IMG/VR virus record: IMGVR_UViG_3300038465_000055
Coordinates: 10,738-74,737 of that record
Direction: 5' to 3' (one strand)
DNA from: a virus
Length of the DNA stretch: 64,000 nt
Shown here: positions 11,694-38,889 of the stretch, one piece after another
Numbering within the stretch: the stretch's first letter is position 1
How the letters are laid out: each line of letters begins with the position of its first letter
Translations under genes and position numbers: made by a program
The notes under the pieces: model-generated
The model's database searches: none
Told to the model about the DNA's origin: nothing
Seen by the model: only the letters and a program-made list of their open reading frames with translations

Positions 11694-11695
11694 TT

Positions 11696-12541: not shown

Positions 12542-12556
12542 GACGACATTCCTTTT

Positions 12557-13879: not shown

Positions 13880-13901
13880 GACGCGAGCCCCTAGCTATTA
13901 T

Positions 13902-14879: not shown

Positions 14880-14884
14880 ATATG

Positions 14885-16695: not shown

Positions 16696-16735
16696 CAGGC
16701 AGACCTCGCGATTTCACTGGCTTGGGTAAGGTTGG

Positions 16736-20281: not shown

Positions 20282-20319
20282 TGCCCTGAAGTTCCATGAC
20301 TCGAGTCGTGGTTTTTACC

Positions 20320-22005
20320 TTACTGCGCAACTTGTCTTGTGTTGGTTATGACGGTGCCGCCTGCCGCATTCTCGATCTTGACCTCGACCTTTGGATTGTA
20401 GCCGGGGACACTATGTCCGTGCCTGATATATTTCTGCGTTTCCCATGGCAAAACGTTGATGTTGTCTCCCGTTCGATGAAACTTGTTGGCGCGACCGGGA
20501 CCGGCATTGTAGGCCGCAAGGATTTCGTCCGTGTTGCCACCATAGCGCTTGGTCAGATCCGCTAGAATCGCATCAGCAACCTGCTCATTATACTTCGCAT
20601 CTTTCAGGCGACTTGGATCAAATCCATACTGCCGCGCCGTGCCGGGCATGACCTGATATCTGCCGATCGCTCCAGCCGATGAAACCTCCTGATCGCCGCT
20701 TCCCTCCAGTTTGCGAACTAGCCCCTTGAGCCACGCGGCATCACCGGTACCTCCGCCAGCGTTCGCATTTCCGGAGAAAACATCCCATAGCTGCGACACC
20801 GCGCTCTTACCGGTCGTCTCGCGCTCCTCGCGCAATGCGCGCGCTCTATTCTTGGTCCCCTCGTATCCTTCGGAGCCTTCGCCGCCGCCCATCCATTCGA
20901 TAAACCCACCGATCTTTTTGGCGATCGTCACCATGCCGTCGACGAACGTGCCGATAGCCTTTAGGAATTCCGGCGTCGAGACATAATCCGCAAATCCTTC
21001 TAGCCCTGCCGCAACCCGCTTGATGACGTCCTCGAGTCCCTTGTTACCGAGGAAGCGTTCAACGACGTGCGTCGCTGCTTCTGACAGCTTTTGCAGCGGT
21101 CCAGTCAAAGGCGTGAGACCGCGAATGAACACCGTTTCGATCGTGTTGCCCGCCGCCCCCAGCCGCGTATTGAAATCCTGCCAGCGCTTCAGATCTTCCT
21201 GCGACACTCCCATCGCACCGCGATCGCGACCGAAGCTTCCGCCCAGCTCGTTCAATTCCTTGTAGGACGTGGCCTTCAACGCTTGGAACTGTTCCGGGGT
21301 AATGATCCCATCCAGCTTGCGCGCCGATAGCGTATCTGACAGCAGCGCATCCGGCGTTCTGTCTGCAAGCCGCTTCAGGCCGCGTAGGACGCGCATGGAG
21401 ACGTCTGTAGTATCCCCGGTCAGATCCCGCTCGCTCAAGCCTGCGCCGTACAGGGACGCCCGCCCAGCCGCGCTATGCAGTGCCGAGTTAACGCCACCAA
21501 GGAATTCCGGTCCGACGATTCGGCCGAAGTTCGTGTTGAAAGCTTTCTGATCGCCGAATTGCGTGTTGTGGCCGAGCCCGTATTGCCGGCCAGCGCTGGC
21601 CGATTGCGCCAGCCGCTCGATGCCAAAGAGGCCGCCAGCGCCCAGCAACCCGGTAAAGATCCCGGTGAGCGTGCCCCATTTCAGCAGCGAATTTGTCGCG
21701 CTGGTAATGTTGGCTGCCACCGTCTTGGTATTGCGAGCCAGATCGCGCCAGTATTCCATCTCGGTCTTGGTGATGCGCAGCGCCTTCTCATGCGCCTCCG
21801 TCATCAGCTTCGCCTTGCCGATCGATGCCACCTCCAGCGCCACAAGCTCTTGAAAGCTTTTGACGTTGCCTGTGACCATGTTCTGAATGGAGCGCAATTG
21901 CTGCGGATGCTTCGCGAGCAACGCCGAATACTGGCGATAGTTCGCATGGAATCGATTGAACGCGCTATCGTTCAGATCAATGTCGATGATAGATTTGACC
22001 GGCAT
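20320..22005 (-). CDS. Tape measure protein with C-terminal lytic transglycosylase (SLT) domain
   Basis: Helical Ala/Gly-rich body; LEGSG...AIGRYQVMP...AAYNAGPG...ETQKY. Confidence 0.9.
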   Translation of the reverse strand: MPVKSIIDIDLNDSAFNRFHANYRQYSALLAKHPQQLRSIQNMVTGNVKSFQELVALEVASIGKAKLMTEAHEKALRITKTEMEYWRDLARNTKTVAANITSATNSLLKWGTLTGIFTGLLGAGGLFGIERLAQSASAGRQYGLGHNTQFGDQKAFNTNFGRIVGPEFLGGVNSALHSAAGRASLYGAGLSERDLTGDTTDVSMRVLRGLKRLADRTPDALLSDTLSARKLDGIITPEQFQALKATSYKELNELGGSFGRDRGAMGVSQEDLKRWQDFNTRLGAAGNTIETVFIRGLTPLTGPLQKLSEAATHVVERFLGNKGLEDVIKRVAAGLEGFADYVSTPEFLKAIGTFVDGMVTIAKKIGGFIEWMGGGEGSEGYEGTKNRARALREERETTGKSAVSQLWDVFSGNANAGGGTGDAAWLKGLVRKLEGSGDQEVSSAGAIGRYQVMPGTARQYGFDPSRLKDAKYNEQVADAILADLTKRYGGNTDEILAAYNAGPGRANKFHRTGDNINVLPWETQKYIRHGHSVPGYNPKVEVKIENAAGGTVITNTRQVAQ

Positions 22006-22839: not shown

Positions 22840-23286
22840 TTACGCAGCATTCCACATCGCATTGTTCACGTAGTACGTCGATTTGAAGCGTACCGTGAAC
22901 GCCGGATTTGTGCCTCCAGAGTCGAGTCCGTCGACGCCTTCGATCGCCGCATTCACCACGTCGAACGGTGGAATGGCTGCGGTATCGAGCCGGATCGAAC
23001 AGTTGCCCAACCGCGTGTCGTTTTCCCATGCCGCCTTGTAGAGCGCCGCAAGCGCGACCGTCTTGACGATCCCCACGCTGAAGGAAAACATCATCCACGG
23101 TTCCGGCGACGTGACGGCGCCAGCCATCGCCGCAAGGAATTGCGTCATGTCGCCGTCGATCCCAAGCTTGATCGCCTCTTTCGTCATGTTTTGAGCATTG
23201 ACGTCGAGCGACGGGAAGGCGTCAAACAGAACGCTGCCGCGCAGCCTGTTGAGCGAACCGAGCTGAATGAGAGGATTGGCAGCCAT
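22840..23286 (-). CDS. Tail tube protein
   Basis: 148 aa, directly after the sheath. Confidence 0.8.
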   Translation of the reverse strand: MAANPLIQLGSLNRLRGSVLFDAFPSLDVNAQNMTKEAIKLGIDGDMTQFLAAMAGAVTSPEPWMMFSFSVGIVKTVALAALYKAAWENDTRLGNCSIRLDTAAIPPFDVVNAAIEGVDGLDSGGTNPAFTVRFKSTYYVNNAMWNAA

Positions 23287-23313: not shown

Positions 23314-24699
23314 TTATGCGTTGACGATGAAATTCGAAACCGAGAGATTGTATATGATCTGTTTGAACCCGCGCGCCGGGACATAGGCAATCGACAACCC
23401 GCGGTATATCCCCGCCGGGAAGTCGGTCGGATTTTCCGCAGCATTGATCAGGAATGGTTCGGCGTTGACGACGGTCATCCCGGTATAGGCGCCAGATTCA
23501 AACGCTGTGATGAAGTCGCTCTGCGAGAGCTGTGTTTGTATAGTGTTGCCATTGAGAACGAGGCCGTTTGTGACACCTTGCTGCATCGTGCTCAATGCAA
23601 CCCGCTGTATGCGGTTGATGCCGTTCTGATCATAGTACAACGGATTGTTTTTGTTGTTCGAATTGGCGACGACATAATTCGAGGTATTGAGGTCGAGGTT
23701 GATTTCAACCCAATCGACCGAATACCAATAGAGCATGTCGTTGCCGTCCAGCGACGTGCCATCGCGCAGGATGACGTTCGACAACCCGGCTTCCGAAGCT
23801 GGGCCACCATAGTTGACGAAAGCCGCTTCGAACTCGGTGGTCTGCGTTCCGAAGCCCGCCGCCGGCCATGGCGTGATGCCGAAGCCGTAGTTGTAGCAGA
23901 ACGGAGTCGCCTTGCTTGTGGATGACGGATTCTGCCCGATCAGGCTGCGGAACGGCCATGCCGCGCCGAATTCGGTTGGCGGCGCATCTGGCGATGGAAT
24001 GAAGATGAACGCCGACTTGTCCGCGCCAACATAATCGGTGTAGGTCCCCGGCGTGCTGGTCGTGATGAAGTAAAGCCGCGATGTCGGAGTCGTGTATTGC
24101 GCTATCAGCGCGAGATACTGCGACAGGCCATCCCATTCTGACGGGACGAGGAACGCATAGATCGTGCCGGGATTGGCCGCGATATAGGTCGCCAGCGCAG
24201 CGATCGCAGCAACCGGCGCCAGATCGCCCAGCTCAAGCACATAGGGTGCAACCTGACTCCCCTGCGCCCAGAACGTATTATTCTGCGTGACCAGCTCGTT
24301 GACGTCGGCAGATATCCAAGTGCCGGGCACCGTTTCCGCCCCCGGATTCGCCGCCAGCGGATAAGTAAAGGTGCTGGCACCGGTCACCGTCGCCAAGAAT
24401 GTGCCGTTGTAAGCAGCCGGCACCGCACCAACGATCGCGACTCCCAACGTCGAAGGATTTGGAAGCCCATGAGGCGCCGCGGTGGTAACGGTTGCGATAC
24501 CACTCAGCCACGTGATCGAGGTGATCGCCGCCCCCGGCGTCAGGATCGAATTGATGGAATTGGACTGCGTCAGGAGTTGCCTCGTCCCCGGCGCCAGCGT
24601 GGTGCCTCCGACCGAAACGATGGCGCCAGTTTGCTGCAAGGTCGAAGGGGCGGGCGCGGAAACGATGTTCGCGTTGACGATCGTGATCGGATTGCTCAT
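23314..24699 (-). CDS. Tail sheath protein (DUF3383-like) with inserted FCCH-like beta domain
   Basis: YWYSVDWVEIN...NPLYYDQNGI; 461 aa; position in operon. Confidence 0.85.
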   Translation of the reverse strand: MSNPITIVNANIVSAPAPSTLQQTGAIVSVGGTTLAPGTRQLLTQSNSINSILTPGAAITSITWLSGIATVTTAAPHGLPNPSTLGVAIVGAVPAAYNGTFLATVTGASTFTYPLAANPGAETVPGTWISADVNELVTQNNTFWAQGSQVAPYVLELGDLAPVAAIAALATYIAANPGTIYAFLVPSEWDGLSQYLALIAQYTTPTSRLYFITTSTPGTYTDYVGADKSAFIFIPSPDAPPTEFGAAWPFRSLIGQNPSSTSKATPFCYNYGFGITPWPAAGFGTQTTEFEAAFVNYGGPASEAGLSNVILRDGTSLDGNDMLYWYSVDWVEINLDLNTSNYVVANSNNKNNPLYYDQNGINRIQRVALSTMQQGVTNGLVLNGNTIQTQLSQSDFITAFESGAYTGMTVVNAEPFLINAAENPTDFPAGIYRGLSIAYVPARGFKQIIYNLSVSNFIVNA

Positions 24700-24752: not shown

Positions 24753-25124
24753 TTACTCGTAGTTTATCGCGATCGTCTGGCCAGCGCCGGGGACGACTAC
24801 AATGCCAGTGGAGCATGGGAAGTTGAGCTGGGTATTCCCGACCGCGGCTGGCGTCGTAGCGATCTGGTTGGCCGCCGCAGCCGCGCCAGTGGTCGCACAA
24901 TCGTTGATGGTCCCAGCCGCACCGGCCACCACAACTGTAAATGAAATGACGGTTCCCGGCGTCGCCTTCACGACGGTGGCCACCGTGATATTTTTAAGCG
25001 TGGTGGACGCATCGGAAGCCTGACTCGCTGTTTCGAGCCGGCCGGCCGCGTCCGCCAGCGCTGGCACATAAGCACCTGACGGATTCTTCGCATACATTTT
25101 CTGGGCGTTTGCGTTCTGGACCAT
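24753..25124 (-). CDS. Small beta-rich structural protein
   Basis: Ala/Thr/Val-rich; GIVVVPGAGQTIAINY C-terminus. Confidence 0.7.
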   Translation of the reverse strand: MVQNANAQKMYAKNPSGAYVPALADAAGRLETASQASDASTTLKNITVATVVKATPGTVISFTVVVAGAAGTINDCATTGAAAAANQIATTPAAVGNTQLNFPCSTGIVVVPGAGQTIAINYE

Positions 25125-26100: not shown

Positions 26101-26547
26101 TTACGTGACCCATGCTCGAAGTGATGATTCGTACAATTCTGTATCAACAAACGACACCGGACGCGAGTTAGATCGACGTCCGCGCTTCTTCTTCCGCCCG
26201 CTCCGCTTCTTCCCCAAGGCACGGTCGATCGCTGCCTGCGTCGGCACGCCGGGATAGCCAAGGCTGTCCATTTCTCCGTTTGTGATGAATTCCTTCATGC
26301 CTTCTTCGATCTTCGAGGCGCCGCCCGCGAACACATCGATGGTTGCCGGGGCCCCCATCAGCAGACTTTCGAGCGCTCCGCGCGCGCCTTCCTCCATCGC
26401 CGTCGCCATGTCCGGCCCGTGAACCTGCGAATAGATTTCGAGGATATGATATTTGTCCTCAAGCCAGCCTGCGACGTCGCCGGTCGTCACCGTGCCCTTC
26501 TGGTCATAAGGCAGATCGTCAATGACTCCGAGATGAAGTACGGGCAT
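26101..26547 (-). CDS. Neck/tail-completion protein
   Basis: LHLGVID.PY...RPVSFVDTELYESS. Confidence 0.75.
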   Translation of the reverse strand: MPVLHLGVIDDLPYDQKGTVTTGDVAGWLEDKYHILEIYSQVHGPDMATAMEEGARGALESLLMGAPATIDVFAGGASKIEEGMKEFITNGEMDSLGYPGVPTQAAIDRALGKKRSGRKKKRGRRSNSRPVSFVDTELYESSLRAWVT

Positions 26548-26561
26548 TTATCTCGCTTCCA

Positions 26562-29500
26562 TCAGTGACCGCTGTTGAAACTCGACGTGCCATTATAATT
26601 TTGCCAGAACGGCGAAGTGAGCGGGTTGCAGAACAGACTAGTACACGAACTAAACCCCCATTGTTGCGAGAGAAGAAAATTCAAAGACGAAGGAGACCCC
26701 GAATTAGGCATCAAACCAAAGGTGACTTGATTGATGTCGGTCCCCATGAATCCCTTGTAGTAATACTCCCATGTCACGGCGAATGACGGATCATTCTTAT
26801 ACCCGGTAAAAACTGCGTCATTGAAAGCGTTGGCCGCTCCTGTACTCGACGGATCAGAGAACGTGATGCCTTCTCCCGCGTTCGTTCCCGTGGCATTGCC
26901 AGATAGAATCACATAGTTGCCGGTGCATGTTGTAGGGCATCCGCTGTTGATCGACGAAACCGTCAGCCCCGAAATATCGCCCGCGGCAACCGTCATCCCT
27001 GTGTAATAGCCAAGAGCAGTCGAGAGACTGTCGACGACGGTGTTTGTGTGAGTCGACCCGGTAATTCCAACCGTAGTGCCGATCTGGATCGGAGGCACCG
27101 CCGCAGCGAAGGTAGCTGCCGCATAAGGATTAACTTCAATGTCGCCTTCGTACCACCGCATCAAAACCGGACCCATCCCAGAAGGTCGAGGATTGGCTGC
27201 CGTCCCGCAACTCTGTTGAGTGGAGCTGCTGTAGCTACAGGCAAGAGTTTGCCAGAGCTGAAGATTAGTCTGGACCGTGGAATTGTTGCCTTGCGTAAAA
27301 GTAAATGGCGTCGATGTGTATATCAGAGAGTTTAGCGACAACGTACCGGTGCCGGGCGTGCCGCAATTTACATCGCTGCCGTTTTGGATTCCGGCAGTGA
27401 ACCCTTTCATGGTGAAGTTCCACGGCGAAGTGGTCAGCGCCGCCCCCGCGGATGTTGTGGCTGCACTTGTGACGTAGAGACCGGCCCCACCGGTCGTGCC
27501 CGAGGTCTGGCTGACGATCGTGGTGGTGATGGTGGACGGAACGCCTGTGCCAGCAACCGCAGCACCTATCGCAATGGTGCCCGTGACGCCGGTTACGGTG
27601 AGGTTGGTTCCGCTGCCAGTCCCCGTGAAGCTGGCTGTGCCGGTGATGGTGTCCGTCGTATAGACTTGGTTTCCTGCTAAACCACTTGGAAGCGTTCCAC
27701 CGGGCGATGTGAACAGGAAGAAGTTGCCATTCCCTCCCGGCTCGTATGACGATGCGCCTGTCCCCGTCGTGAACGTGGTGCCGCTGCAAGTAAGTGCTTG
27801 GGGTGCTCTGCGCGGATAAGTCCCCCTCAGGTCTTGGTCGATGAGCGATATGGCGGCGGCTTCGCTGCCGTTGATCCAGTCGTTCACGACAGGTTGGAAA
27901 AACCAAGCTGATGCTAGCCCGAATCCAGAGCCTCCGACGTCCGACCCGTTCGTGATGTTGTTGCCGCCAACATATGGCGCACCTCCGATCGTGTTGATGT
28001 CGTCGATGGGGCGGTTAGGATAAACATTTCGTCCTGCTACTGAACACCCGCTGGTAAACGTTCCGCCAAAATGTACGCAAAGTGGAGCGTTCGTTGCTGT
28101 GCTTAGAAGTGACCCGCCCAGAGCCAAGATATAATCGCTGGAAGAAAGGGCGCAGCAGAATTGCCCCATCATGGCGGCTTCGTAACGAGAGCGATTTGAG
28201 CCACTAAATACGGACGAAAATGCAAGCGCTGTGTCCGAAGCCAGCACCGCCATGTAGTGCGTATAATCGAGCGGAGAGCCGTTGGTTATATTGAGCCAGT
28301 TCTCACGCTGGATCGCCAGCCGCCATGGTTGATACGCCGGATTCCAGACCTCATTGCCATCTTCAGTAAGCACCTTGAGCGGCGCTTTCATCAAACTAAG
28401 AATAAGGGAGGCCGTTCTGGTCTTGTAAGTGTTGGTGGCCGTTATCGGAAGATTCAGCCAGAAGTTCGCGTCGGTCTGATTGGCAAGATTGATGAAATAC
28501 TCATACGGCGCCATGCCCGGCGAGACGCCGCCGCCCTGTTCGATGACCCCGCCTAAAATGGCATCGTAAGCAAACGTGGAGTAGCCGGTGCCGAGCTGGT
28601 TGGAATTTATTCCACCACAGTTGTCGTTGTAGCCCTGTCCTTCGCAGTTCAAGATGAACGCTTGAGCGCCGCCGGCCTTCGTGGAAACAACGATTGCAAA
28701 TGGACTTATGTAGCCTAGGCAACCGGAACAGGCATGGACAAACGCTGTGTTGAAGGTGACGTGGTAGCCATCACTTGAGATGTTAGTTATTGTCTGGACG
28801 CCACCAGCCTCGGTGGTGCCGCTCGTCAATCCATTGACATAGAGCACATTTCCGACAATGGCGGCGGACACGTTGCCCGCGTAAAGCGCCTGCGCCGCAA
28901 CAGTCTGCGAAACGCTGACAGCATAAGTTCCTGTGCCACCGGCCCCCGTGCAAGCAGGCGCACAAGCAGATGAATTGGTCGTGGAGTTTCCGACAATCGT
29001 GGTGTTGGCCGCAACCGACGTTCCGGAGATAGAAAAGACCGTGTCTCCGAGCAGTACGGAGGCGCTGCCGCCCCCGTAGCTGTTGAAGGCGCTGACGGTC
29101 ATCGTCGTACCAGAAATGCTGGCCGTCGTCATCTGGCTGTGCGCGATCGACGCCGAAACGCACGGACCGCCGCCGCAGTTGGTCGTGCTGTCTCCGACCG
29201 CGTTGACTAGAGTCCATCCCGGCGTCGGTCCTGTGCCGGGATTTCCCATCACGGTGTCGCCATCAGCCCATGCCCCTAGGCTCTGGTCGTTGGCGCTGTT
29301 GTTCATGTCGTCAGAAGGCGCGCAGGTAAAAATATATGGCGCCTGTCCTGACGAGCCAGCCGTGAGCGGACACGTCGGCGTAGTATTGCCCGCTCCTCCG
29401 GAACGAGCGCTCGGCACATTACGGCTGGTGAATGTGAGATGGAGGTCGGTGATCTGAGCACGATAACCAAACGTCGTCATCTTGGTAGTGTCGGAAGCGC

Positions 29501-30359
29501 TTGATCCCATATTTCGGAGCCAGCCGAAGCCAGCTCCCTTTATGGCTGCTACAAATTCAGGAACGAAGAACGAGCCGGAAGCCCCGCTGGTTGACATCGC
29601 AAGCGCGTATTGGGAGCAATCATCGTTCGGCGCGCCGCCGTTATTGGTGCTCCGACAAAGTATCCACTCGCCGCTGCCCGGCGCAAAAGCATAACCCGTC
29701 GGATAAAGAATGGAGAGACCGAAGCACTGCGACGTGCATTGAAACACTGCCGTGCCAGCCGTGCTGCCGTTGCACTTGAAATTCTGGTTGCTGCTGGTGA
29801 ACGTGCCCGGTGTGCCGGAACCGCTGAGCGTCATTCCACCCGTGAAAGACGACACCACAAATGTCGGCGTGGTCGTATTGCCGAAAACTATCGACATGAA
29901 CGGACGTGTCGCGGCGCACGACAGCGTATAGGTTGAGTTTAACCACAGACCATTAGTCTGCGAACCAATCTGCTGCGTCAGCGTCGTAATCGGATATTGG
30001 CTACCATCGACGTCGATGGAAGTATTGTTGTTTGTTGCTTGGTTTCCCCTCAGGGCATTTGTGTAAGTGATCGGCGTAAGATCCGCGCCGACACTGAGCA
30101 TTACTTGGGAAATGCCGGCGGGTGGCGATAAGGGCGCTGAACCATGACGATAGCCGACCGGCAGAAAGCGAGACTCACCTTGGCCGAAAAATTTAACGGC
30201 TCCCGACAACGAAGCCTTCTGCTCAATGATTAGATGCTGGATCTGAATCGAGTAGGCCAGAAGATTATTGCGCTGCGGATTGACCGGCATCGCAAAGGAA
30301 GTCGTCGTCGCCAGTGCGACTACCACACCAGCCAGAGCTGATAAAAATCTTTTGAACAT
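26562..30359 (-). CDS. Large exported protein with glycoside-hydrolase-like core and beta-rich insertions
   Basis: Signal peptide MFKRFLSALAGVVVALATTTSFA; FINLANQ...FWLNLP...EDGNEVWN; many Cys pairs. Confidence 0.7.
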   Translation of the reverse strand: MFKRFLSALAGVVVALATTTSFAMPVNPQRNNLLAYSIQIQHLIIEQKASLSGAVKFFGQGESRFLPVGYRHGSAPLSPPAGISQVMLSVGADLTPITYTNALRGNQATNNNTSIDVDGSQYPITTLTQQIGSQTNGLWLNSTYTLSCAATRPFMSIVFGNTTTPTFVVSSFTGGMTLSGSGTPGTFTSSNQNFKCNGSTAGTAVFQCTSQCFGLSILYPTGYAFAPGSGEWILCRSTNNGGAPNDDCSQYALAMSTSGASGSFFVPEFVAAIKGAGFGWLRNMGSSASDTTKMTTFGYRAQITDLHLTFTSRNVPSARSGGAGNTTPTCPLTAGSSGQAPYIFTCAPSDDMNNSANDQSLGAWADGDTVMGNPGTGPTPGWTLVNAVGDSTTNCGGGPCVSASIAHSQMTTASISGTTMTVSAFNSYGGGSASVLLGDTVFSISGTSVAANTTIVGNSTTNSSACAPACTGAGGTGTYAVSVSQTVAAQALYAGNVSAAIVGNVLYVNGLTSGTTEAGGVQTITNISSDGYHVTFNTAFVHACSGCLGYISPFAIVVSTKAGGAQAFILNCEGQGYNDNCGGINSNQLGTGYSTFAYDAILGGVIEQGGGVSPGMAPYEYFINLANQTDANFWLNLPITATNTYKTRTASLILSLMKAPLKVLTEDGNEVWNPAYQPWRLAIQRENWLNITNGSPLDYTHYMAVLASDTALAFSSVFSGSNRSRYEAAMMGQFCCALSSSDYILALGGSLLSTATNAPLCVHFGGTFTSGCSVAGRNVYPNRPIDDINTIGGAPYVGGNNITNGSDVGGSGFGLASAWFFQPVVNDWINGSEAAAISLIDQDLRGTYPRRAPQALTCSGTTFTTGTGASSYEPGGNGNFFLFTSPGGTLPSGLAGNQVYTTDTITGTASFTGTGSGTNLTVTGVTGTIAIGAAVAGTGVPSTITTTIVSQTSGTTGGAGLYVTSAATTSAGAALTTSPWNFTMKGFTAGIQNGSDVNCGTPGTGTLSLNSLIYTSTPFTFTQGNNSTVQTNLQLWQTLACSYSSSTQQSCGTAANPRPSGMGPVLMRWYEGDIEVNPYAAATFAAAVPPIQIGTTVGITGSTHTNTVVDSLSTALGYYTGMTVAAGDISGLTVSSINSGCPTTCTGNYVILSGNATGTNAGEGITFSDPSSTGAANAFNDAVFTGYKNDPSFAVTWEYYYKGFMGTDINQVTFGLMPNSGSPSSLNFLLSQQWGFSSCTSLFCNPLTSPFWQNYNGTSSFNSGH

Positions 30360-30365
30360 TTTTTA

Positions 30366-31166
30366 TTAAGTTCCTGGATACCAGTATGCCCACGGATTTT
30401 CGGACCACTTCAACAGAGTGTTGAACGACAGCATGTTGCCAAAATTAAAACTATACATATACGCAGCGATGTGACCCGGAAACGCTGCCACTGCCGCAGT
30501 GTGGTTGCCTATGTTGAAGGTGCCGTCACCTGCCGAGGCTCCGACGCTGGCCAATGCAGCCTGTGTGGCCACTACTTTTCCCGTCGCCAGATTGCGAATG
30601 ATTCCGTCAATTGAATTTGCACCGTTGGCATAGTTACTGAAGGCCGCAAAGTAAGGCACCCCAACCGCAAGCGCATAGCCAGCAGTCGGAAACGCTCCGG
30701 CGGTTTCCGGAAATAAAACAGGAGCAGTACTTACAAGCAAAGAGTTGCTCGTATTTGCATTTGCCGTGCTGTGGAGAGCAGCCGTGACTGTTGGGATGCT
30801 GTCCATGACGAAAATGCAACCATACGTAAAACCACCGATCGGATTCCTTGCCGAGAAACCGGAAAACTCGATCTGATCCGTGCTGGCGCCGTTGAACTTG
30901 ACGCTTGGACCGATCACCGGGTCTAGAAATCCAGTCGGAGCACCAATGATCGTTCCCGGTTTGCCACCTAGAAGGTTTGTGAAATTCCCGCCTAAATTGG
31001 CCACCGCCGATATCCACGGCTGTCCAGAAACAGGATGACTCTGATTCATCCCCGGAGCCACCCCAGCCGGAAACGCAAACGGCGGCCTTTGAGCTGCAAA
31101 CAGTTTGCGCGACGGCAACAGGAGGGCTGGGGCAGCAACTTGGATAAGACGACGGCGCGACAGCAT
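30366..31166 (-). CDS. LamG/concanavalin-like protein with Tat-like signal
   Basis: MLSRRRLIQVAAPALLLP; beta-sandwich pattern FNIG...FPGHIA...WSENPW. Confidence 0.7.
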   Translation of the reverse strand: MLSRRRLIQVAAPALLLPSRKLFAAQRPPFAFPAGVAPGMNQSHPVSGQPWISAVANLGGNFTNLLGGKPGTIIGAPTGFLDPVIGPSVKFNGASTDQIEFSGFSARNPIGGFTYGCIFVMDSIPTVTAALHSTANANTSNSLLVSTAPVLFPETAGAFPTAGYALAVGVPYFAAFSNYANGANSIDGIIRNLATGKVVATQAALASVGASAGDGTFNIGNHTAAVAAFPGHIAAYMYSFNFGNMLSFNTLLKWSENPWAYWYPGT

Positions 31167-31811
31167 TTAGTTTTGTCCTGCAATCGGAGCTAACTTTATC
31201 AAATTTCCGGTCCCGCCCAGCGCAGCGCCACAGTTATTTTGGGTCATCACCTTGAACTGAAGTGCAGGAACGTTAATCGGCCCCGGCGCTTTATAGGTGT
31301 TGGTGCTGATCGCAGCAGTGGGAAGAAAAATTATAGCATCTGGAGAGCGGACCATTTGCGCTGCTGTGGCAGTCTCGAACGTTGTTCCGTCTCCGGTTTG
31401 AAGAAACCAGATCGAGATGTTGCCGCCCGCCGTGCACGTCGCGGTGGCGCCAGAGGTGAAGAAGATTTCACCGAGTTGTGCGCCGCCTGTGTTTGAATTG
31501 TTGAACAGTCCAGAGGTGCCACCAACCGAACTGACGGCAACCGCACCATTGGCTAGCGCGTTCAATTCTATCGATTCCAGCGTCAGCAGCGCCGAGTAAA
31601 GACCATTGTTCGACGAGCCGAGATACCATTTGTGCGGCCCTGCATTCGGCGCGCAGTTTCCGTCATCTCCGGTTTGCGTGCTCATACCGACCGAGGACGG
31701 CACGTTGTTGTTGATCGAGATCGGATTGGTGCACGCCGCCAGCGCTGGCGCGGCGAACGCGATCAGCCAAAGCACGACTGCTGTTAGTGGTGCTGCGAGA
31801 CGCTTGATCAT
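31167..31811 (-). CDS. Exported beta-rich protein
   Basis: Signal peptide MIKRLAAPLTAVVLWLIAFAAPALA; WFLQTGDGTTFE. Confidence 0.75.
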   Translation of the reverse strand: MIKRLAAPLTAVVLWLIAFAAPALAACTNPISINNNVPSSVGMSTQTGDDGNCAPNAGPHKWYLGSSNNGLYSALLTLESIELNALANGAVAVSSVGGTSGLFNNSNTGGAQLGEIFFTSGATATCTAGGNISIWFLQTGDGTTFETATAAQMVRSPDAIIFLPTAAISTNTYKAPGPINVPALQFKVMTQNNCGAALGGTGNLIKLAPIAGQN

Positions 31812-31823
31812 AGTGATCGCTCC

Positions 31824-32009
31824 TTACCGGAAGATGAGAGAGAAATATTGACTGTTGCAGGCTTGCGAAAAATCCAGCTCGTTCGAGCACGAGTTCCCGC
31901 CACCACTGCCGGCGCCGAGCAGCATGATGCTTGCCGCGCGCGACTGATCGCCGCGAACCGAGCACGACGCGATCGCGATGAGAACGAGAATGATAATGCG
32001 CTTCTTCAC
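31824..32009 (-). CDS. 61-aa exported or lipoprotein peptide carrying the LDFSxxxNSQY motif (GTG start)
   Basis: GGAG RBS; MKKRIIILVLIAIAS-C lipobox; C-terminus ELDFSQACNSQYFSLIFR. Confidence 0.7.
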   Translation of the reverse strand: MKKRIIILVLIAIASCSVRGDQSRAASIMLLGAGSGGGNSCSNELDFSQACNSQYFSLIFR

Positions 32010-32020
32010 GTATCCACTCC

Positions 32021-35000
32021 TCAGAATTGCATGTAGCTGATCGAACCGGCGACAGCCACCGCTGCCGTTGTAATGGCGCACAGCGCGTTTCCTGACGGCA
32101 CCTTCAAGATCGTCCCCACACCGCCGCCTTTCGTAAGACCCGGATTGGACGTGCTCAGAGAATATGCCCCGCTAAGTGTGCCCTGCCCTGTAGCGCAAGC
32201 CGTTCCAGTTCCGTAAATCCATTGGAACGTGTCCACACCCGCGGCCATGAAATCTTCCGACGTGACATAGATCGACGTCGAGCCCGACAGCGCGACGATC
32301 TGGGTTGTAGTCGCCGTCGAGATGCTGATCGGCGCAGACAGGCTGTCCTGCGACAAAGTCTGGCGCCCCACGCCAGTTCCGGTCTGACCTTGGCCGGTTG
32401 CCGTAGCCGTTCCAGCCGTCTGGGCATTGTTGGTCTGCACCACAACGCTGGGCGCCGAGCCCGCCAGCGTCGCGGTATCGGTGGCAACGGTGACTCGAGG
32501 AACTGTGGCTCCCTGCGCTCCGGTACCGGTGGCCACCGCGGCGTTGCCGACCATCAGGTTGGCAAAGAGACCGTTCGTGGCACTCAGGACCGCGTTGCCT
32601 TGCAGGAGGTTGGAGAAGATGCCGTTGGTCGCTGACAAGGCCGAGCCGCCTTGCGTGAGACCAGCCGTCCACGTGCCCGATTGCGTGGCTGCAACCGTGC
32701 CTGTGATCGTGGTCGACGTCAGCGTCACGGCAAGACCGGAGACACCCGCCGCAACCAGCAATTCACCGCGCGAACTGAATAGCAGCGCAGCCTGTTGCGT
32801 GTTCGTCATTGTCGGCTGCGCCGAAAGATACTGACCGCCGACCGTGAGCGCGCTGGTCGACGCCGCCGTCGCCGCATTGAGCGGACCCGTAACCTGCGGG
32901 ATCGGCCCCTTGATATCGTCGTCAAGCTGGCCGAGACAGCCGATGATGGTATTCCCTGCAACCGAGCAGGTATGCGCCGAGGTGATCGTTCCCTCGACGA
33001 CGTTGGCGCCGTTGGCGAGCGAGCCCGCTGCGAACGCACCGGACGCGAACGCGCCCGACGCATAGGCGCCCGAAGCGATCGAGCCCGACGCATAGGCGCC
33101 GCTCGCCACCGCACCGGACACCATCGTGACAGCACCGCCCCCACCGCCCACCTTGACGTTGACTAGCAGGTTGCCCGCGGCATCCATCTGGAACGGCGAG
33201 AAGTTCCCGGACGTGATCGTGGCCGGCGTCGTGTTGAACTGGCCACCGACTAGAACTGAGCTGAATGTGCCCGTCGCGTTCTGGCCAGCGAAATCGAGCA
33301 GCGCGCCGGCATTGCCGACGATCCGATCGCTCCACGTGCCAGATTGCGTGACTGGAATGGCGCTCTGGTTGCTGGCGATCGCAACCGAGACGCTATTGGC
33401 CATCGTGACTTGGCCGTTTGGATTGACGCTATTCGGCGAGATCGATACGACGATCGCCGTGTCGGTAGCCAACGGCGGCGTGCTCCCGAGCTTGATTGCC
33501 GCCCCGACGACGTTCTGACCAGCCGCGCCCGTGACTGTACCGCCGAACACGACCGGGGGATTGGCGTTCGCAACGCCCACTGCCGTGGGACCAAAGACCG
33601 CCCCCCCGCCGCCGCCGCCGCCGGTGCATCCAGAGATACAAGCGACATTCAGGGCATTCGTGGTCGAGGCTATGACGTTCCCGGAGCCGTCGACGATCTG
33701 GGTTTTTGCCGCGCCGCTGGTTTGCAAGGTGGCCGTGGCCGCGCCCGTGGGAAGGCTGATAGTTCCTGTGATGTTGTTGATGTTGTTCGTGGCGCCGGTG
33801 AGCTGGACGCCAAAGGTACCCGTTCCGACGACGGTCGCATTGAGGGCCGCCGCCGTGGCCTGCGTCACAGCGAACGAGCTGTTGCCGATCGAACCGCCGG
33901 CCTGAAATGGCGTTCCAAGCGCTGCTATGATAGTCGCCTGATTGGCCGCCGTGCCGGCTCCCCCCAAGGTGCCAAGGTTGACCGTAGGCGTTGCCGCGAA
34001 GGCAGGGAGCGTCCCCAAGATGCCAAAGGCCGTATTGGCGATGCTGCCACCGGCTTGGAACGGCGTGCCCAGCGCCGTCTGGATCGCCGCCAGCGTGGTC
34101 TGTGTCGCGACCCCCGCGATGGTCCCCAGATTGACGGTTGGCGTCGCAGCAAACGCAGGCAGCGTGCCCGTGATGCCAAACCCGGTATTGGTGATCGAGC
34201 CGATCGCGTTGGTGCCCGCAGCGAGCCCAATCGACCAAGCGCCAGACTGCGCGGCCGGGAATGTGCCGCCAGCGCCGGTAACAAGCAGCGCCGAGCCGTT
34301 CGAACCGGTATTGGCGAGAGAGACCTGAAGCGGGGCCGCCGATACGCCGACTTCCGCTCCCGCCGCGTTGCGCAGGTTCATCATGACAGCGCGGAATTCC
34401 GTCAACTGCACCATGCCCTGATCGCCAGCCGTCAGGGGATTTGCCGTCACCGTCGTCTGATAGAAACCGCCCGCGCCAGCGAACAGCGAAGCGCCGGCCG
34501 CGAACAGCGCACCATCCGCCGTGCTCACGCCCGAACCCGAGCAGTTCGAGCACTGGATATTCAGGTTGCCGCCGGTACCGGTGAGCGGAACAAGATTGCC
34601 GCCCTGCAACATACCGACGTAGGTGGCCGAGCCCGGCGCCAGCGTGGCCACCGCTCCAACGGACGCATTCGGAGCCGCGCCGCAGCCCGTGCCGCAATTG
34701 AATGTCGGGGTGGCCGCAAATGCCGGGAGCGTGCCGCCGAGACTGACAGTGCCGCTGACCGGTTGCGTTACCGCAGATCCGTCGACCATGAGGCCATTGG
34801 CGGTCGCGACCAATCCCGTCAGGACGCCGCCGACGCTGGCGCCGAGATAGGTGGCAGAGGCCGGCACCGCGATCGAGGTGAGCGCAACCGACGCATTCGA
34901 TCCGTTGCAACCGCTGACGCAATTGACATTCGGCGTGCCCGCAACCGAGACAGGAAGGGTGACCGAAGCCTTGATGCTTACCCATTCTCCATTGGTGACG

Positions 35001-35389
35001 TCGCCGAGCTGCGGCTGAAAATTACCCGACACATCCTTGAAGCCGCCCGGCGTGCCGAAATTTCCGATCGGGCTTGCGAAGGTGGCCGAGACGCCAGTGC
35101 CGCTGCAATTCGAGCATGTGATGCTGCCGGTGACTGCAAACGTAGCTCCCGCGCCGGGCGAGACAAAGATCGGATTGGCCGACACACCCATCGGGTTGCC
35201 AGTCTGATCCTGAATGACGTTAGCCGCGCATATGACGCTGTTCGAGCAATTGAACCCATGCAGTTGGCGCGGGATCTTGTAGGCGTCGAGGAACGAATAA
35301 TTAGGGAACGTGGCCTGTTGAGCCAGAGCTGGGGAAAGGCCAACGAGCGACAGCGACCAGATCGCCAATGCCAAGAGAGCTTTTTTCAT
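32021..35389 (-). CDS. Large repetitive fibre-like protein with Sec-type signal peptide
   Basis: MKKALLALAIWSLSLVGLSPALA-Q; repeats GTLPAFAATPT x3, ALGTPFQAGGSI x2, CSNCSG x2, ASGA(Y/F) run. Confidence 0.8.
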   Translation of the reverse strand: MKKALLALAIWSLSLVGLSPALAQQATFPNYSFLDAYKIPRQLHGFNCSNSVICAANVIQDQTGNPMGVSANPIFVSPGAGATFAVTGSITCSNCSGTGVSATFASPIGNFGTPGGFKDVSGNFQPQLGDVTNGEWVSIKASVTLPVSVAGTPNVNCVSGCNGSNASVALTSIAVPASATYLGASVGGVLTGLVATANGLMVDGSAVTQPVSGTVSLGGTLPAFAATPTFNCGTGCGAAPNASVGAVATLAPGSATYVGMLQGGNLVPLTGTGGNLNIQCSNCSGSGVSTADGALFAAGASLFAGAGGFYQTTVTANPLTAGDQGMVQLTEFRAVMMNLRNAAGAEVGVSAAPLQVSLANTGSNGSALLVTGAGGTFPAAQSGAWSIGLAAGTNAIGSITNTGFGITGTLPAFAATPTVNLGTIAGVATQTTLAAIQTALGTPFQAGGSIANTAFGILGTLPAFAATPTVNLGTLGGAGTAANQATIIAALGTPFQAGGSIGNSSFAVTQATAAALNATVVGTGTFGVQLTGATNNINNITGTISLPTGAATATLQTSGAAKTQIVDGSGNVIASTTNALNVACISGCTGGGGGGGAVFGPTAVGVANANPPVVFGGTVTGAAGQNVVGAAIKLGSTPPLATDTAIVVSISPNSVNPNGQVTMANSVSVAIASNQSAIPVTQSGTWSDRIVGNAGALLDFAGQNATGTFSSVLVGGQFNTTPATITSGNFSPFQMDAAGNLLVNVKVGGGGGAVTMVSGAVASGAYASGSIASGAYASGAFASGAFAAGSLANGANVVEGTITSAHTCSVAGNTIIGCLGQLDDDIKGPIPQVTGPLNAATAASTSALTVGGQYLSAQPTMTNTQQAALLFSSRGELLVAAGVSGLAVTLTSTTITGTVAATQSGTWTAGLTQGGSALSATNGIFSNLLQGNAVLSATNGLFANLMVGNAAVATGTGAQGATVPRVTVATDTATLAGSAPSVVVQTNNAQTAGTATATGQGQTGTGVGRQTLSQDSLSAPISISTATTTQIVALSGSTSIYVTSEDFMAAGVDTFQWIYGTGTACATGQGTLSGAYSLSTSNPGLTKGGGVGTILKVPSGNALCAITTAAVAVAGSISYMQF

Positions 35390-35414
35390 CGCTCGAATTC
35401 CCCAAAGGAAAGTG

Positions 35415-35855
35415 TCAGCCGCCGATCAGCGGTATGTACTGCGAATTTTCTGCATCCGAAAAATCAAGGTCAGGATCTTCTTCGCCTCGTATCCGCAGGT
35501 AAACGATTTCCACGAAGATACGGCCCTGCGCCGTCGTCGCATTGTTCATCAGAGCATACACTGATCCGATTGCTCCGACCGACAACCAGACGGAAACAAA
35601 CGGATTATTTATTGCCTTGTTACCTATCACCAAACCTTCATCCGGAGGTTCGATCTGATCCCACGTCGAAGTCACGATCGTGTCGCCCGCCGCCGCCGGT
35701 GGCACAGCAAGCCGTATCGAATAATCGATACCGAAGTCGAGTTTTTCGATCGAATTCTTTGCTGGCCATTCAAGCAGTTGGCGCCCGCGACCGGGGGTAA
35801 CGATTCGCGAAAATCCTGCCGGCAGAATAACCCGCTGTGAATTAACGCCGACCAT
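35415..35855 (-). CDS. Fibre adaptor-like protein with C-terminal LDFSxxxNSQY motif
   Basis: KLDFGIDYS...VWLSVG...TTAQGR; ends DLDFSDAENSQYIPLIGG. Confidence 0.65.
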   Translation of the reverse strand: MVGVNSQRVILPAGFSRIVTPGRGRQLLEWPAKNSIEKLDFGIDYSIRLAVPPAAAGDTIVTSTWDQIEPPDEGLVIGNKAINNPFVSVWLSVGAIGSVYALMNNATTAQGRIFVEIVYLRIRGEEDPDLDFSDAENSQYIPLIGG

Positions 35856-35868
35856 GACCGTTCACGCC

Positions 35869-36183
35869 CTATTTATAATATGACACGTTGAGGACAGCGG
35901 TTGCCGACTGCTGGATGAATTGCAGCGCGGCCAGATTGGCGAGGGGAATCGGCGCAGCTCCAGCCGTGATCTGCATCCCGATCGTCGCAGTTGGCGCTGT
36001 CCCGTCATCGCGATAATTCACATTTGCGCCCGTGCACATCACCAAGGCATAGGTCGCGCCCGCCGGCACTGTAAACGCCGCCGCCACTGTCAATGCCGTG
36101 ATCTGCTGGAATCCCAACGGCTTGCCTGACGGGATGATCGTGACCGGCGTCGACGCACCAGCCTGCACAAGTTGGTTTGCCAT
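35869..36183 (-). CDS. Small beta-rich structural protein (possible capsid spike/fibre base)
   Basis: VPAGATYAL...YRDDGTAPT...LNVSYY. Confidence 0.7.
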   Translation of the reverse strand: MANQLVQAGASTPVTIIPSGKPLGFQQITALTVAAAFTVPAGATYALVMCTGANVNYRDDGTAPTATIGMQITAGAAPIPLANLAALQFIQQSATAVLNVSYYK

Positions 36184-36196
36184 TATCTATTTTCCC

Positions 36197-36715
36197 TCAT
36201 GTGATCCCGAACAGAGTCGGTCCCCACTTCTGTGCGATCGACAGATAGCGTCGGCCCCATGGCGTCTTCATGTTTTGCAGATCCGACAGCGAGAGCTGCG
36301 CGAGCGAATCAGGAACGACCATCGACTCGCTTGTTCCCTCATCGCTCGCGGACGATATCACGCCTGAGACGAAACCGTTGACGTTGAATTTTCTTCGCAG
36401 ATACGCAAAGACAGGCAGCCTGTCCTTACCGATGGTCCCATAAAACGGCGGCGGATTGCCGAACGCATCACCGATGTCAGGCGCATAATTGATCAGGATA
36501 TCCGCTGCCAGATTGTAGACCGCCTGATGATAAAGGAACGGCACAGCACACCTGATGAAGCCGTTCACCGTTTCCCGCGCCGAGTGAAAAGCAAAGAACA
36601 CCACCGGCGAGGTTGGTGGCAACTGTGCCGGAGTGATCTGCATAAAACCGTAGACGAATTGAAGGAATCCATCGACGGTCGGCGGGGGAACGATGAACGG
36701 CGGATCATTATCCAT
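36197..36715 (-). CDS. Head-tail adaptor (DUF4054-like)
   Basis: AVYNLAAD...GVISSASDEGTS...KTPWGRRYL. Confidence 0.8.
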   Translation of the reverse strand: MDNDPPFIVPPPTVDGFLQFVYGFMQITPAQLPPTSPVVFFAFHSARETVNGFIRCAVPFLYHQAVYNLAADILINYAPDIGDAFGNPPPFYGTIGKDRLPVFAYLRRKFNVNGFVSGVISSASDEGTSESMVVPDSLAQLSLSDLQNMKTPWGRRYLSIAQKWGPTLFGIT

Positions 36716-36969
36716 CAGCGCGGTCCCTCGAACGACTCGAGAAACAGGCCCTCTCGATAGGCGCCATTGTGCAGGACATAATGCCGCGCGCCCCACTTGA
36801 TGACGTCTGGAGGCCCGCCGGGCGGCAGCCTGATCGTTGTGACGCGCTCCCCTGACTTGGTGAACAACTGCACGTCGCCTCTATTTTCAGGACGCTTCAT
36901 TTCCTGCTGTGGCATGTCAAATCCCGTGATGTTCCAAACCTCGCCTTTTTCATCTGCCCACTGGCCCAC
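36715..36969 (-). CDS. Hypothetical protein
   Basis: Coupled ORF. Confidence 0.55.
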   Translation of the reverse strand: MGQWADEKGEVWNITGFDMPQQEMKRPENRGDVQLFTKSGERVTTIRLPPGGPPDVIKWGARHYVLHNGAYREGLFLESFEGPR

Positions 36970-37551: not shown

Positions 37552-37583
37552 AAACGAAACGCGGCAGCCGTGAAGCTACCGCG
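37552..37583 (-). terminator. Intrinsic terminator downstream of the capsid genes
   Basis: CGCGGTAGC-TTCACG-GCTGCCGCG followed by TTTCGTTT on the minus strand. Confidence 0.75.
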
Positions 37584-37611
37584 CTGCGTTCCTCCGCCGA
37601 TATTCAAAAAC

Positions 37612-37866: not shown

Positions 37867-38889
37867 TCAGCTATATTGCATCGATATCACTTGGACTGCC
37901 TCACCACGGAGTCCCCATCCACTCGTAATCCTCATCTCGGACACGACGTCGACGGCGCCACCGGGCAGAGGCGCGGTCAGTTCGCGCGGCGCGACCATGT
38001 CGCAGAGCTGCAAGACGCAAGCGTCTAGCCCCGGAGCGATGTTAGCGAATTCGTTGGTGTTCCAGTTCGTTGTCGGCTGCGGATTCTCGACTTCCGGCAT
38101 GACGAGCAAGACCGCATCAAGGCCACCGGCGCCCTTGCCGATCAGCGTGTCGTCATAGGCCCAGATGATCTCGTCACCGTTCAAGCCACCGACGCCCTCG
38201 ACCACGCCAGCGGTTGACTGCGAACCGGCGCCTGCGCGCTGATACTGCGTGAGCTGGACGACGTTGTACTCGAACTGGCCGAGCGTGCGCTGCGATCCGA
38301 GGATCGTGAATTTGCGGCCGATGCCGAGCTGGTTGGTGCGAGTCTTCATCGCGAGCAACTGGCTGATGACGAAGAACGCCATCTCGCCGTTGTCATAGGT
38401 GATGACGGTATCGTTGCCGTAACTGTCCGGCGGTAGGTTGATCGCGACGGCGCCTGCCGTATTCAGCAGGCCCTCGCCGTTGGCCGGGTTCATGCCGTAG
38501 AGCAGCGCGGATCGAGTGAGCTGGAAATGCCCCTGACGCATACCTAGGCGATAGGCTTGTTCGATCGCCATGCCGCGACGCGCCATCGCCGCTGAATCGT
38601 GATGATCCCATTCGGCACGAACCCGCAGCAGGTAGGTCGCCGTCTGGATGTATGAAAGGAAAATGCCGATCGACGGGAGCTGGTTATAGGCGCTCTGTCC
38701 CGCCGCCATCTTGGTGCGAACATCGGCGCGATTGATGTAGCAGGCCAGATCGCCTTCACCTAGCCTCACCATCAGGTCGCCGCTTGGAAGTGTCTTGAAG
38801 GCGCCCGAAGCTTGGCTATAGGGCAGCAACACTTCCGGAAGCGTGAGCGACGGATTGAGCGTGATAAAGGCCGGTGCAATTACGGGCAT
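37867..38889 (-). CDS. Major capsid protein
   Basis: 340 aa after scaffold and decoration genes; LLYGMNPANGEGLLN; MRITSGW. Confidence 0.85.
   Translation of the reverse strand: MPVIAPAFITLNPSLTLPEVLLPYSQASGAFKTLPSGDLMVRLGEGDLACYINRADVRTKMAAGQSAYNQLPSIGIFLSYIQTATYLLRVRAEWDHHDSAAMARRGMAIEQAYRLGMRQGHFQLTRSALLYGMNPANGEGLLNTAGAVAINLPPDSYGNDTVITYDNGEMAFFVISQLLAMKTRTNQLGIGRKFTILGSQRTLGQFEYNVVQLTQYQRAGAGSQSTAGVVEGVGGLNGDEIIWAYDDTLIGKGAGGLDAVLLVMPEVENPQPTTNWNTNEFANIAPGLDACVLQLCDMVAPRELTAPLPGGAVDVVSEMRITSGWGLRGEAVQVISMQYS

Follow-up and report, generated by a model that had tools for sequence, protein, structure and literature searches.

A late-operon insertion encoding predicted exported fiber and glycan-related proteins in a Chronis-like myovirus

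The DNA analyzed here (the window) is a 64,000-nucleotide stretch of IMG/VR virus record IMGVR_UViG_3300038465_000055, spanning bases 10738-74737 of a viral contig of 74.7 kb, rated complete by CheckV. At 26562-35389 on its minus strand, five consecutive genes follow the gene for a Gp77-type adaptor and begin with export signals, three of the Sec type, one twin-arginine and one lipobox. Export of the five proteins is very likely. Gene order in relatives marks the stretch 26548-36196 that contains them as an accessory module, inserted where head and tail join in a Chronis-like myovirus. The explanation favored here, held with somewhat less than even confidence, is that the module makes accessory neck fibers and glycan-acting proteins which would fold in the periplasm, and that the fiber would dock on the collar at lysis.

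Export signals and cysteines of the five gene products

An earlier note on this DNA had described five consecutive genes between the head-tail adaptor and the neck gene, all starting with export signals (three Sec, one Tat, one lipobox) and packed tightly on the late strand. Their open reading frames (ORFs), starts and N-termini were confirmed, as was the packing, with gaps of 0-25 nucleotides (nt). From the adaptor onward, all on the minus strand, the genes encode a fiber of 1122 amino acids (aa) with a Sec signal at residues 1-23, 16 cysteines (Cys), repeated GTLPAFAATPT units and a predicted C-terminal jelly-roll domain (32021-35389; N-terminus MKKALLALAIWSLSLVGLSPALA/QQ, the slash marking the predicted cut); a 61-aa lipoprotein with the lipobox IAS/C (31824-32009; N-terminus MKKRIIILVLIAIAS/C); a 214-aa predicted beta-sandwich protein with a Sec signal at residues 1-25 and 4 Cys (31167-31811; ...AFAAPALA/AC); a 266-aa twin-arginine (SRRRLI) protein with a basic c-region, a predicted LamG/concanavalin-like jelly roll and 1 Cys (30366-31166; N-terminus MLSRRRLIQVAAPALLLPSRKLFAAQ); and a 1265-aa protein with a Sec signal at residues 1-23 and 28 Cys (26562-30359; N-terminus MFKRFLSALAGVVVALATTTSFA/MP). 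The four longer genes start with ATG and each has a purine-rich stretch upstream. The lipoprotein gene starts with GTG and has GAGGAG 8 nt upstream.

Under an in-house rule, the Sec-type products show a basic n-region, an h-region of at least 10 residues and small residues at -3 and -1. The lipoprotein carries the sequence [LVI][ASTVI][GAS]C after a basic, hydrophobic N-terminus. In the 266-aa protein SRRRLIQ is followed by the weakly hydrophobic VAAPALLLP and then by SRK before FAA, a partial match to the twin-arginine motif in which L-I replaces F-L. The crude signal-peptide rule flags 7 of the 90 window ORFs, four of them in this run, the lipoprotein being counted only from an internal GTG; the chance of five leaders in a row is ~2e-5. 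By these features the five products appear to be built like genuine substrates of host export, by the Sec (1122, 214 and 1265 aa), Tat (266 aa) and lipoprotein (61 aa) routes.

The 1122-aa protein has its Cys in 8 sequential pairs (CSNC twice, CVSGC, CGTGC, CISGC and others), and those of the 1265-aa protein include CAPAC, CSGC, CGGGPC and CPTTC among others. The lipoprotein has its lipidation Cys and two more. Leaderless structural proteins of the same phage contain 0-4 Cys. Combined Gly, Thr, Ala and Ser content is 0.46-0.53 in the cassette versus 0.26-0.33 in portal, terminase and capsid; the description of the large products as rich in these residues and in close Cys pairs is thereby borne out.

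Homologs extend this pattern (L numbers denote viral or metagenome loci, and P numbers single protein homologs). The 1122-aa fiber has 41 homologs and a near full-length relative in L003, to which it is 55% identical. For its C-terminal part 40 relatives were found, all metagenomic, and about 33 of the 40 have signal-like N-termini in which the leader sequence is divergent. Leader-bearing fiber homologs contain 4-16 Cys, and the count in the mature protein is even in 29 of 32 (p 1e-6); three clearly leaderless homologs contain 0, 1 and 1. All 28 aligned homologs with a leader or an otherwise high Cys content keep the pair C1065/C1104, and other residues stand in its place in the leaderless P0040, P0045 and P0049. 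The core of the 1265-aa protein, a glycosidase-like region described below, belongs to a family of 567 relatives, about half with Sec or Tat leaders. Among 150 representatives of this family 70 have a Sec signal and 5 more are Tat-like, and the leader-bearing members have an even Cys count in 52 of 68 cases (p 7e-6). The L003 homolog of this core has the twin-arginine sequence SRRKFL where the window protein has a Sec leader; the route varies and export is kept. At the equivalent cassette position the large proteins of L003, L007 and L012 carry twin-arginine sequences (SRRKFL, SRRSFL and DRRQLL, respectively). A rule that Tat-routed proteins are Cys-poor was rejected: it is true of the 266-aa protein, but the L003 and L007 twin-arginine proteins contain 12 and 15 Cys. 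A word search gave no close homolog of the 266-aa protein. The claim of the earlier note that these proteins are exported and oxidatively folded is well supported by the leaders of the homologs and by the leader-linked Cys content, and the Sec-routed products appear to have the paired-Cys make-up of proteins that fold in an oxidizing compartment.

A very improbable explanation of the same features takes the hydrophobic N-termini as uncleaved tethers on the cytoplasmic face of the membrane, or as assembly handles, with the Cys pairs binding metal along the axis of a trimeric fiber or oxidizing after release, as in phage Milano. The CxxC and CxGxC spacing does resemble metal sites, with a weak BSD2/DnaJ-type match (17.9 bits, below the cut-off), and the particle proteins of Milano carry many disulfides in a paper that never mentions the periplasm (PMC10811340). 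Such tethers are hard to square with three types of export signal in one block, including a lipobox and a twin-arginine leader with a basic c-region, or with a fiber family that has Cys only where a leader is present and in which the predicted cuts fall just where the leaderless relatives begin.

Pfam and PHROGs searches gave nothing significant for the five exported proteins or for the fibers of other loci. Moreover, tblastn of both large proteins and one leaderless fiber against 50,697 phage records returned nothing useful. Viral contigs scanned with the 1265-aa protein, the phrog_6359 protein or the adaptor as single queries gave no matches, so alignment-based scans were needed. Elsewhere in the window, at the far end of the late strand, two Cys-free proteins of 268 and 270 aa have clear Sec-type leaders (4710-5516 and 5968-6780, both on the minus strand) and no Pfam match.

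The collar adaptor, the socket peptide and the fiber family

The gene that precedes the fiber (35415-35855, minus strand) encodes a Gp77-type collar/fiber adaptor of 146 aa with no leader, no Cys and a 23-aa C-terminal extension. Residues 33-120 match PF23148 at 57.2 bits (cut-off 27), and residues 33-123 align with residues 7-91 of PDB 8JOU chain D, the gp77 protein of Ralstonia phage GP4, in a weak but collinear match (E 0.002). Describing the cassette as following a fiber-adaptor-like gene was thus correct. The suggestion that its products form head fibers finds no backing here, the adaptor being of the collar/neck type.

The extension of the adaptor contains a peptide, LDFSDAENSQY (35436-35468), which lies 17 residues before the stop and was delimited by alignment with other copies. 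The adaptor and the 61-aa lipoprotein both carry LDFSxAxNSQY, and the peptide recurs twice in L003 and in L006 and L015. A scan built on these six copies found 15 more viral loci and 25 metagenome contigs. The total is ~45 phage and metagenome loci, with 22 copies in viral loci, as counted with a loose pattern, and 25 in metagenome contigs (a few contigs are shared). The consensus is (P)SLD[FY]S[DQ]xxNSQY, and the distance to the stop is 15-21 residues in viral copies and 12-20 in metagenome copies. It is found at the end of particle proteins, and otherwise at the end of unidentified or tiny ORFs. Among the identified carriers, that of the window is the Gp77-type collar protein; L003 has the tag on a neck terminator and on a head protein, L026 on a head closure protein, L022, L033 and L034 on baseplate wedge proteins, L021 on a central tail fiber and L031 on a collagen-repeat protein.

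At most loci with continuing sequence, the next long ORF starts within ~21 nt of the tagged one (25 nt in the window). Two types of start cover most of these downstream ORFs. The first is leaderless, begins M-(3-6 residues)-VKDAAG and has 0-1 Cys. The second begins with a leader, continues ...A-x-A/DY-V-[VI]-K-D-G-N-G-..-Q-T-I-K-A-G and has 2-14 Cys. The VKD-type motif therefore stands at residue 4-7 in leaderless fibers versus residue 20-28, directly after A-x-A, in leader-bearing ones. Since the motif lies directly behind the predicted cut, which falls one or two residues before it, the mature leader-bearing fiber would have the N-terminus of its leaderless relatives. The 1122-aa protein is assigned to a large family of phage fibers with leaderless and leader-bearing members, in which the peptide nearly always stands at the end of the gene immediately before the fiber. 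The tagged ORFs upstream of leader-bearing fibers have no leader themselves, and nearly all have 0-1 Cys. At least 10 loci have the tag on a leaderless, almost Cys-free ORF directly upstream of a leader-bearing fiber, and the identified carriers are particle proteins.

These regularities are most simply accounted for if the tag is a portable socket for the fiber N-terminus, one that would travel with the fiber gene and become joined in frame to the C-terminus of any exposed particle protein it happens to land behind. Two other accounts were considered. A recombination site acting only at the DNA level is unlikely, as copies differ by synonymous codons and second copies lie away from the fiber 5' end in L003, where the carrier is the neck terminator, and in L033. 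Fusion of the tagged ORF to the fiber by frameshifting is also unlikely: the two ORFs lie about -4 to +25 nt apart and keep no fixed frame. In the metagenome contigs L130 and L139 a variant of the tag lies within a Cys-dense tail (SYCSNCQCMKPSLDFSDACNSMYLPLCERV) and may represent another exported form of the socket.

The C-terminal domain of the 1122-aa fiber (residues ~1012-1122; 32024-32356, minus strand) contains the conserved C1065/C1104 pair and is modeled by AlphaFold2 as an all-beta jelly roll with a pLDDT of ~95. VIA-align gives Z ~8 to spore-appendage subunits, YomS/XepA, viral jelly rolls and carbohydrate-binding modules. In L006 the domain occurs alone as a leader-bearing protein. 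An outer-membrane or autotransporter anchor, considered for the ...SISYMQF end of the fiber, was rejected: no Pfam anchor family matches, and a compact jelly roll is the confident model for the last 110 residues. A second exported fiber is encoded at 8971-11373 on the minus strand, an ordinary tail-fiber locus distal to the baseplate and downstream of a leaderless 440-aa tail fiber. It is 800 aa long from the ATG at 11373, has 16 paired Cys and the N-terminus MRSFIAALFALAVSVVGAAA/QP, and has no Pfam match; no socket tag was found on the gene upstream of it.

The tag of the 61-aa lipoprotein (31845-31877) stands at its end in a Cys-bracketed form, C-SNE-LDFSQAC-NSQY. Two exported tag copies were found, this one and that of a mini-protein in L006; both are bracketed by two Cys, and only synonymous differences separate them within the tag. 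The L006 mini-protein lacks a lipobox and has a hydrophobic helix. Hence membrane anchoring, and not lipidation, seems to be conserved between the two. The lipoprotein could stage the fiber at the membrane or equally be its final anchor.

From this, a sequence of events can be proposed. The C-terminal peptide would serve as a portable socket for the fiber N-terminus, and its presence on a Gp77-type collar protein would make the fiber an accessory neck fiber. If the fiber is exported and oxidized and the collar is assembled in the cytoplasm, the two could meet only once the inner membrane is breached at lysis. Until then the lipoprotein, as an exported, disulfide-bracketed socket copy, may hold the fiber or the next protein at the membrane, and the glycosidase and lectin-like proteins may act on host surface or periplasmic glycan, either riding on the fiber or free. 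If the tag is such a socket, leader-bearing fibers pose a topological problem because the socket sits on proteins assembled in the cytoplasm. Docking at membrane breach, in line with the earlier note, would be the most economical answer, and in its favor at least 10 systems with leader-bearing fibers retain the tag on a particle protein of the cytoplasm.

A bolder generalization is advanced more tentatively still. Tailed phages of soil Proteobacteria would build part of their host-recognition gear outside the cytoplasm, with Sec-exported, periplasm-oxidized fibers that snap onto finished particles at lysis through the C-terminal socket LDFSxxxNSQY. Recombination could graft this socket onto any exposed particle protein, and a membrane-anchored copy would stage the fiber.

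The inserted block and the site of action of its products

In the window the late genes all lie on the minus strand and comprise terminase (46531-47937), portal (44521-46071), protease/scaffold (39939-41942), capsid (37867-38889), sheath (23314-24699), tube (22840-23286), and baseplate and fibers (8971-18450). The presence of sheath, tube and baseplate genes identifies a contractile-tailed phage. Among cultured phages, the nearest backbones are those of Klebsiella phage Chronis and its kin, with ~65% DNA identity across the capsid gene. The sole genome match is a Roseiarcus metagenome-assembled genome, so that placing the host in the Hyphomicrobiales is no more than a guess.

Two backbone genes border the block, one on its head side with a match to phrog_6356 (36197-36796, minus strand) and one on its tail side assigned to phrog_6560 by PHROG match and adjacency survey (26101-26547, minus strand). 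These genes adjoin in Chronis, and the gap between them is 0-21 nt in 77 of 77 related viral loci versus 9.6 kb in the window. The inserted unit consists of a gene for a 104-aa protein, the adaptor and the five exported genes (26548-36196). The earlier note had proposed a survey of related phages for the same locus. The block is absent from all 77 backbone relatives, and the module recurs in unrelated phage backbones.

The 104-aa protein (35869-36183, minus strand) is the first of the block, has no leader and gave no Pfam or PHROG match. Over its C-terminal half it shares 47% identity with the 127-aa protein that closes the L003 cassette (L003 18249-18632) and does bear a leader; this small domain therefore occurs in both leaderless and leader-bearing form. 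Compared with most backbone relatives, the window has a second, small insertion, a 123-aa gene between the phrog_6359 and sheath genes (24753-25124, minus strand), and the two closest relatives, L036 and L037, have ~400 nt at this site. In the tail module, the baseplate hub gene is separated from the phrog_7750 gene by a homing-endonuclease-like ORF (phrog_314; 18454-19335, minus strand). The capsid gene is followed by a 70-aa ORF and, ~25 nt beyond it, by a strong terminator-like hairpin of 12 pairs and a T run (37558-37585, minus strand), which may attenuate transcription past the capsid gene, as in many phages.

An insertion whose products are all exported could also be lysogenic-conversion cargo. 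Moron-type examples are Lom and Bor of phage lambda and the prophage-borne Eib adhesins of E. coli. The prophage would then express the block, and the lysogen would gain from its surface adhesins and glycan enzymes. Besides its absence from 77 of 77 relatives, the G+C content of the fiber gene (0.61-0.64, versus ~0.56-0.58 nearby) suits such an origin; raised G+C is also what a Gly/Ala-rich protein gives. This explanation is improbable. A simple consensus scan, which is a weak test, found no promoter-like site and no convincing terminator in the 0-25-nt gaps, which was counted for late co-expression, and the genes of the block line up with the late operon. Moreover, a particle collar adaptor stands at the start of the block, the module recurs at head-neck or fiber positions of unrelated phage backbones, and no integrase was found among the 10 ORFs tested in a partial check.

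Two of the remaining products have predicted folds that suit glycan processing. The 1265-aa protein has a ~500-aa N-terminal region followed by a glycosidase-like core with inserted domains. AlphaFold2 models residues 501-1265 with a mean pLDDT of 79.9, and within them residues ~613-1265 (26565-28523, minus strand) resemble a (beta/alpha)8 barrel of the clan GH-A type. The top 50 VIA-align matches are mostly TIM-barrel glycosidases of this type (Z 9.0-11.8, 197-252 residues aligned, rmsd 3.0-5.5) from families GH51, GH39, GH79, GH53, GH10, GH26, GH5, GH128 and others. Foldseek against PDB gave no significant match for the fold. No Pfam family was found for the 1265-aa protein or for nine of 10 homologs tested, the tenth matching only a secretion sorting domain. 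E670 (N669-E670, in SNEVWN) is invariant and E1071 (in WYEG) near-invariant across 61 aligned sequences, making them candidates for acid/base and nucleophile. Taken together, the models suggest a glycosidase barrel of the clan GH-A type in the 1265-aa protein.

A ~65-aa inserted module of the same protein (FTGTGSGTNLTVTGVTGTI..GTGVP..IVSQTSGTTGGAGLYVTS; 27432-27635, minus strand), recognized by sequence matches and with the pattern FTGTGSGTNLTVT..GTGVP..IVSQTSGTxGGAGVYVTS, is 76% identical to tandem copies in the leader-bearing fiber/tailspike-like proteins P0002-P0005. L003 has a copy with 56% identity in its leaderless sheath-like protein and a stretch of similar appearance in its neck terminator (L003 regions 19505-21487 and 18629-19441). 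The 266-aa protein is LamG-like, with an Atlas feature score of 0.91-0.94 and a TM of 0.66 to Laminin_G_3 clusters. Atlas structure matches of the 214-aa protein to viral proteins of 138-169 aa (TM 0.72-0.84 by target), along with weak CBM6-like rows, suggest a beta-sandwich common to many small phage proteins.

Two other loci are informative about the partners of such enzymes. In L012 (2926-9278) a leaderless, Cys-free fiber is followed by two Sec-type proteins and a large twin-arginine protein (MDRRQLLTSASASGLLLAARP), and in L024 (6072-10579) a leaderless, Cys-free fiber is followed by two Sec-type proteins and a Sec-type glycosidase homolog. Exported accessory proteins are therefore linked to fiber genes even when the fiber is cytoplasmic. 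This order would suit enzymes that clear glycan in the periplasm or after release, in a role linked to receptor specificity.

Such a role is central to an alternative that is a real, if doubtful, possibility: the five proteins are exported, never join particles and act late on the envelope of the infected cell. The glycosidase and lectin-like proteins would cut or mask the glycan that the phage fibers recognize, like a receptor-destroying enzyme, so that progeny are not trapped on debris or superinfection is blocked. The lipoprotein tag would hold the fiber on the membrane, and the collar tag would serve a cytoplasmic fiber remnant or another partner. The existence of an exported, lipid-anchored tag copy favors this explanation, as do the GH-A and LamG folds, which suit glycan processing, and the dispensability of the block for the backbone. 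Signal peptides on unknown genes of Porphyromonas phages have likewise been read as marking host-surface modifiers (PMC10367356). Two observations are left unexplained by action on the envelope: the leader-bearing fiber genes, at least 10 of them, whose tags stand on leaderless, almost Cys-free upstream ORFs that include baseplate wedge and neck terminator genes, and the predicted cut that reproduces the N-terminus of leaderless virion fibers.

Docking of the fiber on the virion, to return to the preferred explanation, is plausible but unproven, with the balance tilted slightly against it. It gains indirect support from the same observation that the socket peptide sits on particle-protein ORFs directly upstream of leader-bearing fibers at 10 or more loci. 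A number of points weigh against it. A 9.6-kb block that is missing from every one of the 77 backbone relatives is not needed to build the particle. Docking would be confined to the seconds between membrane breach and dispersal, and a membrane-anchored socket copy would compete with the collar for the fiber. The exported lipoprotein tag fits envelope anchoring at least as well as virion docking, and L006, where the only tag found within 10 kb is membrane-anchored, also favors the envelope. Exported enzymes beside the leaderless fibers of L024 and L012, which count for the envelope as well, may never join the particle. Furthermore, the N-terminal motif of the window fiber has diverged (NYSFLDAYK...FNCSNSVIC; YSFLDAYKIPRQLHGFNCSNSVIC) and was not picked up by the motif rule; it resembles TFTAKDATG...INCSANIC of P0017, and aligns by eye with P0017 and P0038. 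Export was called by an in-house signal-peptide rule and by conservation in homologs. Finally, particle membership of the five proteins is predicted from the genes, and binding of the tag to the fiber N-terminus from gene order and co-occurrence.

Comparison with known systems

In the textbook view, the assembly of tailed phages is wholly cytoplasmic. Literature searches gave no description of exported tailed-phage fibers, and in papers on phages phiCbK and Atu_ph07 signal peptides are mentioned only for lysis genes or in reference lists. What appears to be new here is the socket tag, its exported copy, the link between leader and Cys within one fiber family, the insertion status of the block and the glycosidase fold. 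If it is true that exported, disulfide-bonded fibers join particles at lysis, phages would have a second assembly compartment. Prediction of receptor-binding proteins would change, as would their expression for study, which would need a periplasmic, oxidizing route, and the yield of infectious particles would be viewed in relation to the Sec, Tat and Dsb systems of the host. If the proteins act on the envelope only, the block is a candidate late-acting receptor-clearing system linked to fiber genes, likewise undescribed. The socket peptide would be useful in either case as a short, specific mark that links a fiber gene to its carrier particle protein in head, neck and baseplate positions, and it gives a simple binding test for the main question.

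Late phage proteins that use host export are known from lysis: signal-peptide or SAR endolysins and spanin lipoproteins. These resemble the window products in being routed through the Sec or lipoprotein pathway. Unlike those lysis proteins, the window products are fiber-, lectin- and glycosidase-like and are linked to a particle adaptor. Accessory neck fibers are likewise familiar. The collar/whiskers (fibritin) of phage T4 are a dispensable neck fiber encoded beside the head-tail joining genes, a cytoplasmic coiled coil without leader or disulfides. The dispensable neck attachment and the position of the gene are what the window fiber would share with T4 fibritin; no sequence or fold similarity to fibritin or other accessory neck fibers was found here.

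Host-type signal peptides have been described in Porphyromonas gingivalis phages, on capsid proteins, spanins and genes of unknown function; fibers, a docking tag and paired Cys are not discussed there (PMC10367356). Agrobacterium phage Milano is an alphaproteobacterial myovirus whose particle proteins are cross-linked by disulfides; export is not discussed in that paper, and in the window Cys richness is confined to leader-bearing proteins (PMC10811340). The mosaic adhesive trimer fibers of Bdellovibrio are described as phage-like, made by a Gram-negative cell, surface-displayed and glycan-binding (PMC10769870). Likened to the window fiber by description only, they differ in being cellular proteins of a predator, encoded outside phage morphogenesis operons and with no known socket tag.

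The nearest relatives in sequence are the leaderless fibers of the same family (L024-L029, L035, L122, L126, L141, P0045 and P0049). They share the tag on the upstream ORF and the VKDxxG-type N-terminal motif, and P0045 and P0049 have the same C-terminal domain as the window fiber. Unlike it, they have no leader and 0-1 Cys, and are therefore presumably assembled in the cytoplasm like ordinary fibers. The nearest known docking system is that of gp77 of Ralstonia phage GP4, a "fiber-tail adaptor" (PF23148, PDB 8JOU) that has been compared with the collar proteins of other phages (PMC13730344). The window adaptor matches both the family and the solved chain and is directly followed by a fiber gene. 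Conversely, GP4 is short-tailed and its gp77, at 93 aa, has no C-terminal extension, whereas here the tail is contractile, the adaptor has 23 extra residues with the LDFSxxxNSQY tag, and the partner fiber has a signal peptide. The block would therefore be a new variant of fiber-adaptor docking, and a new assembly route if the bolder generalization to soil Proteobacteria holds.

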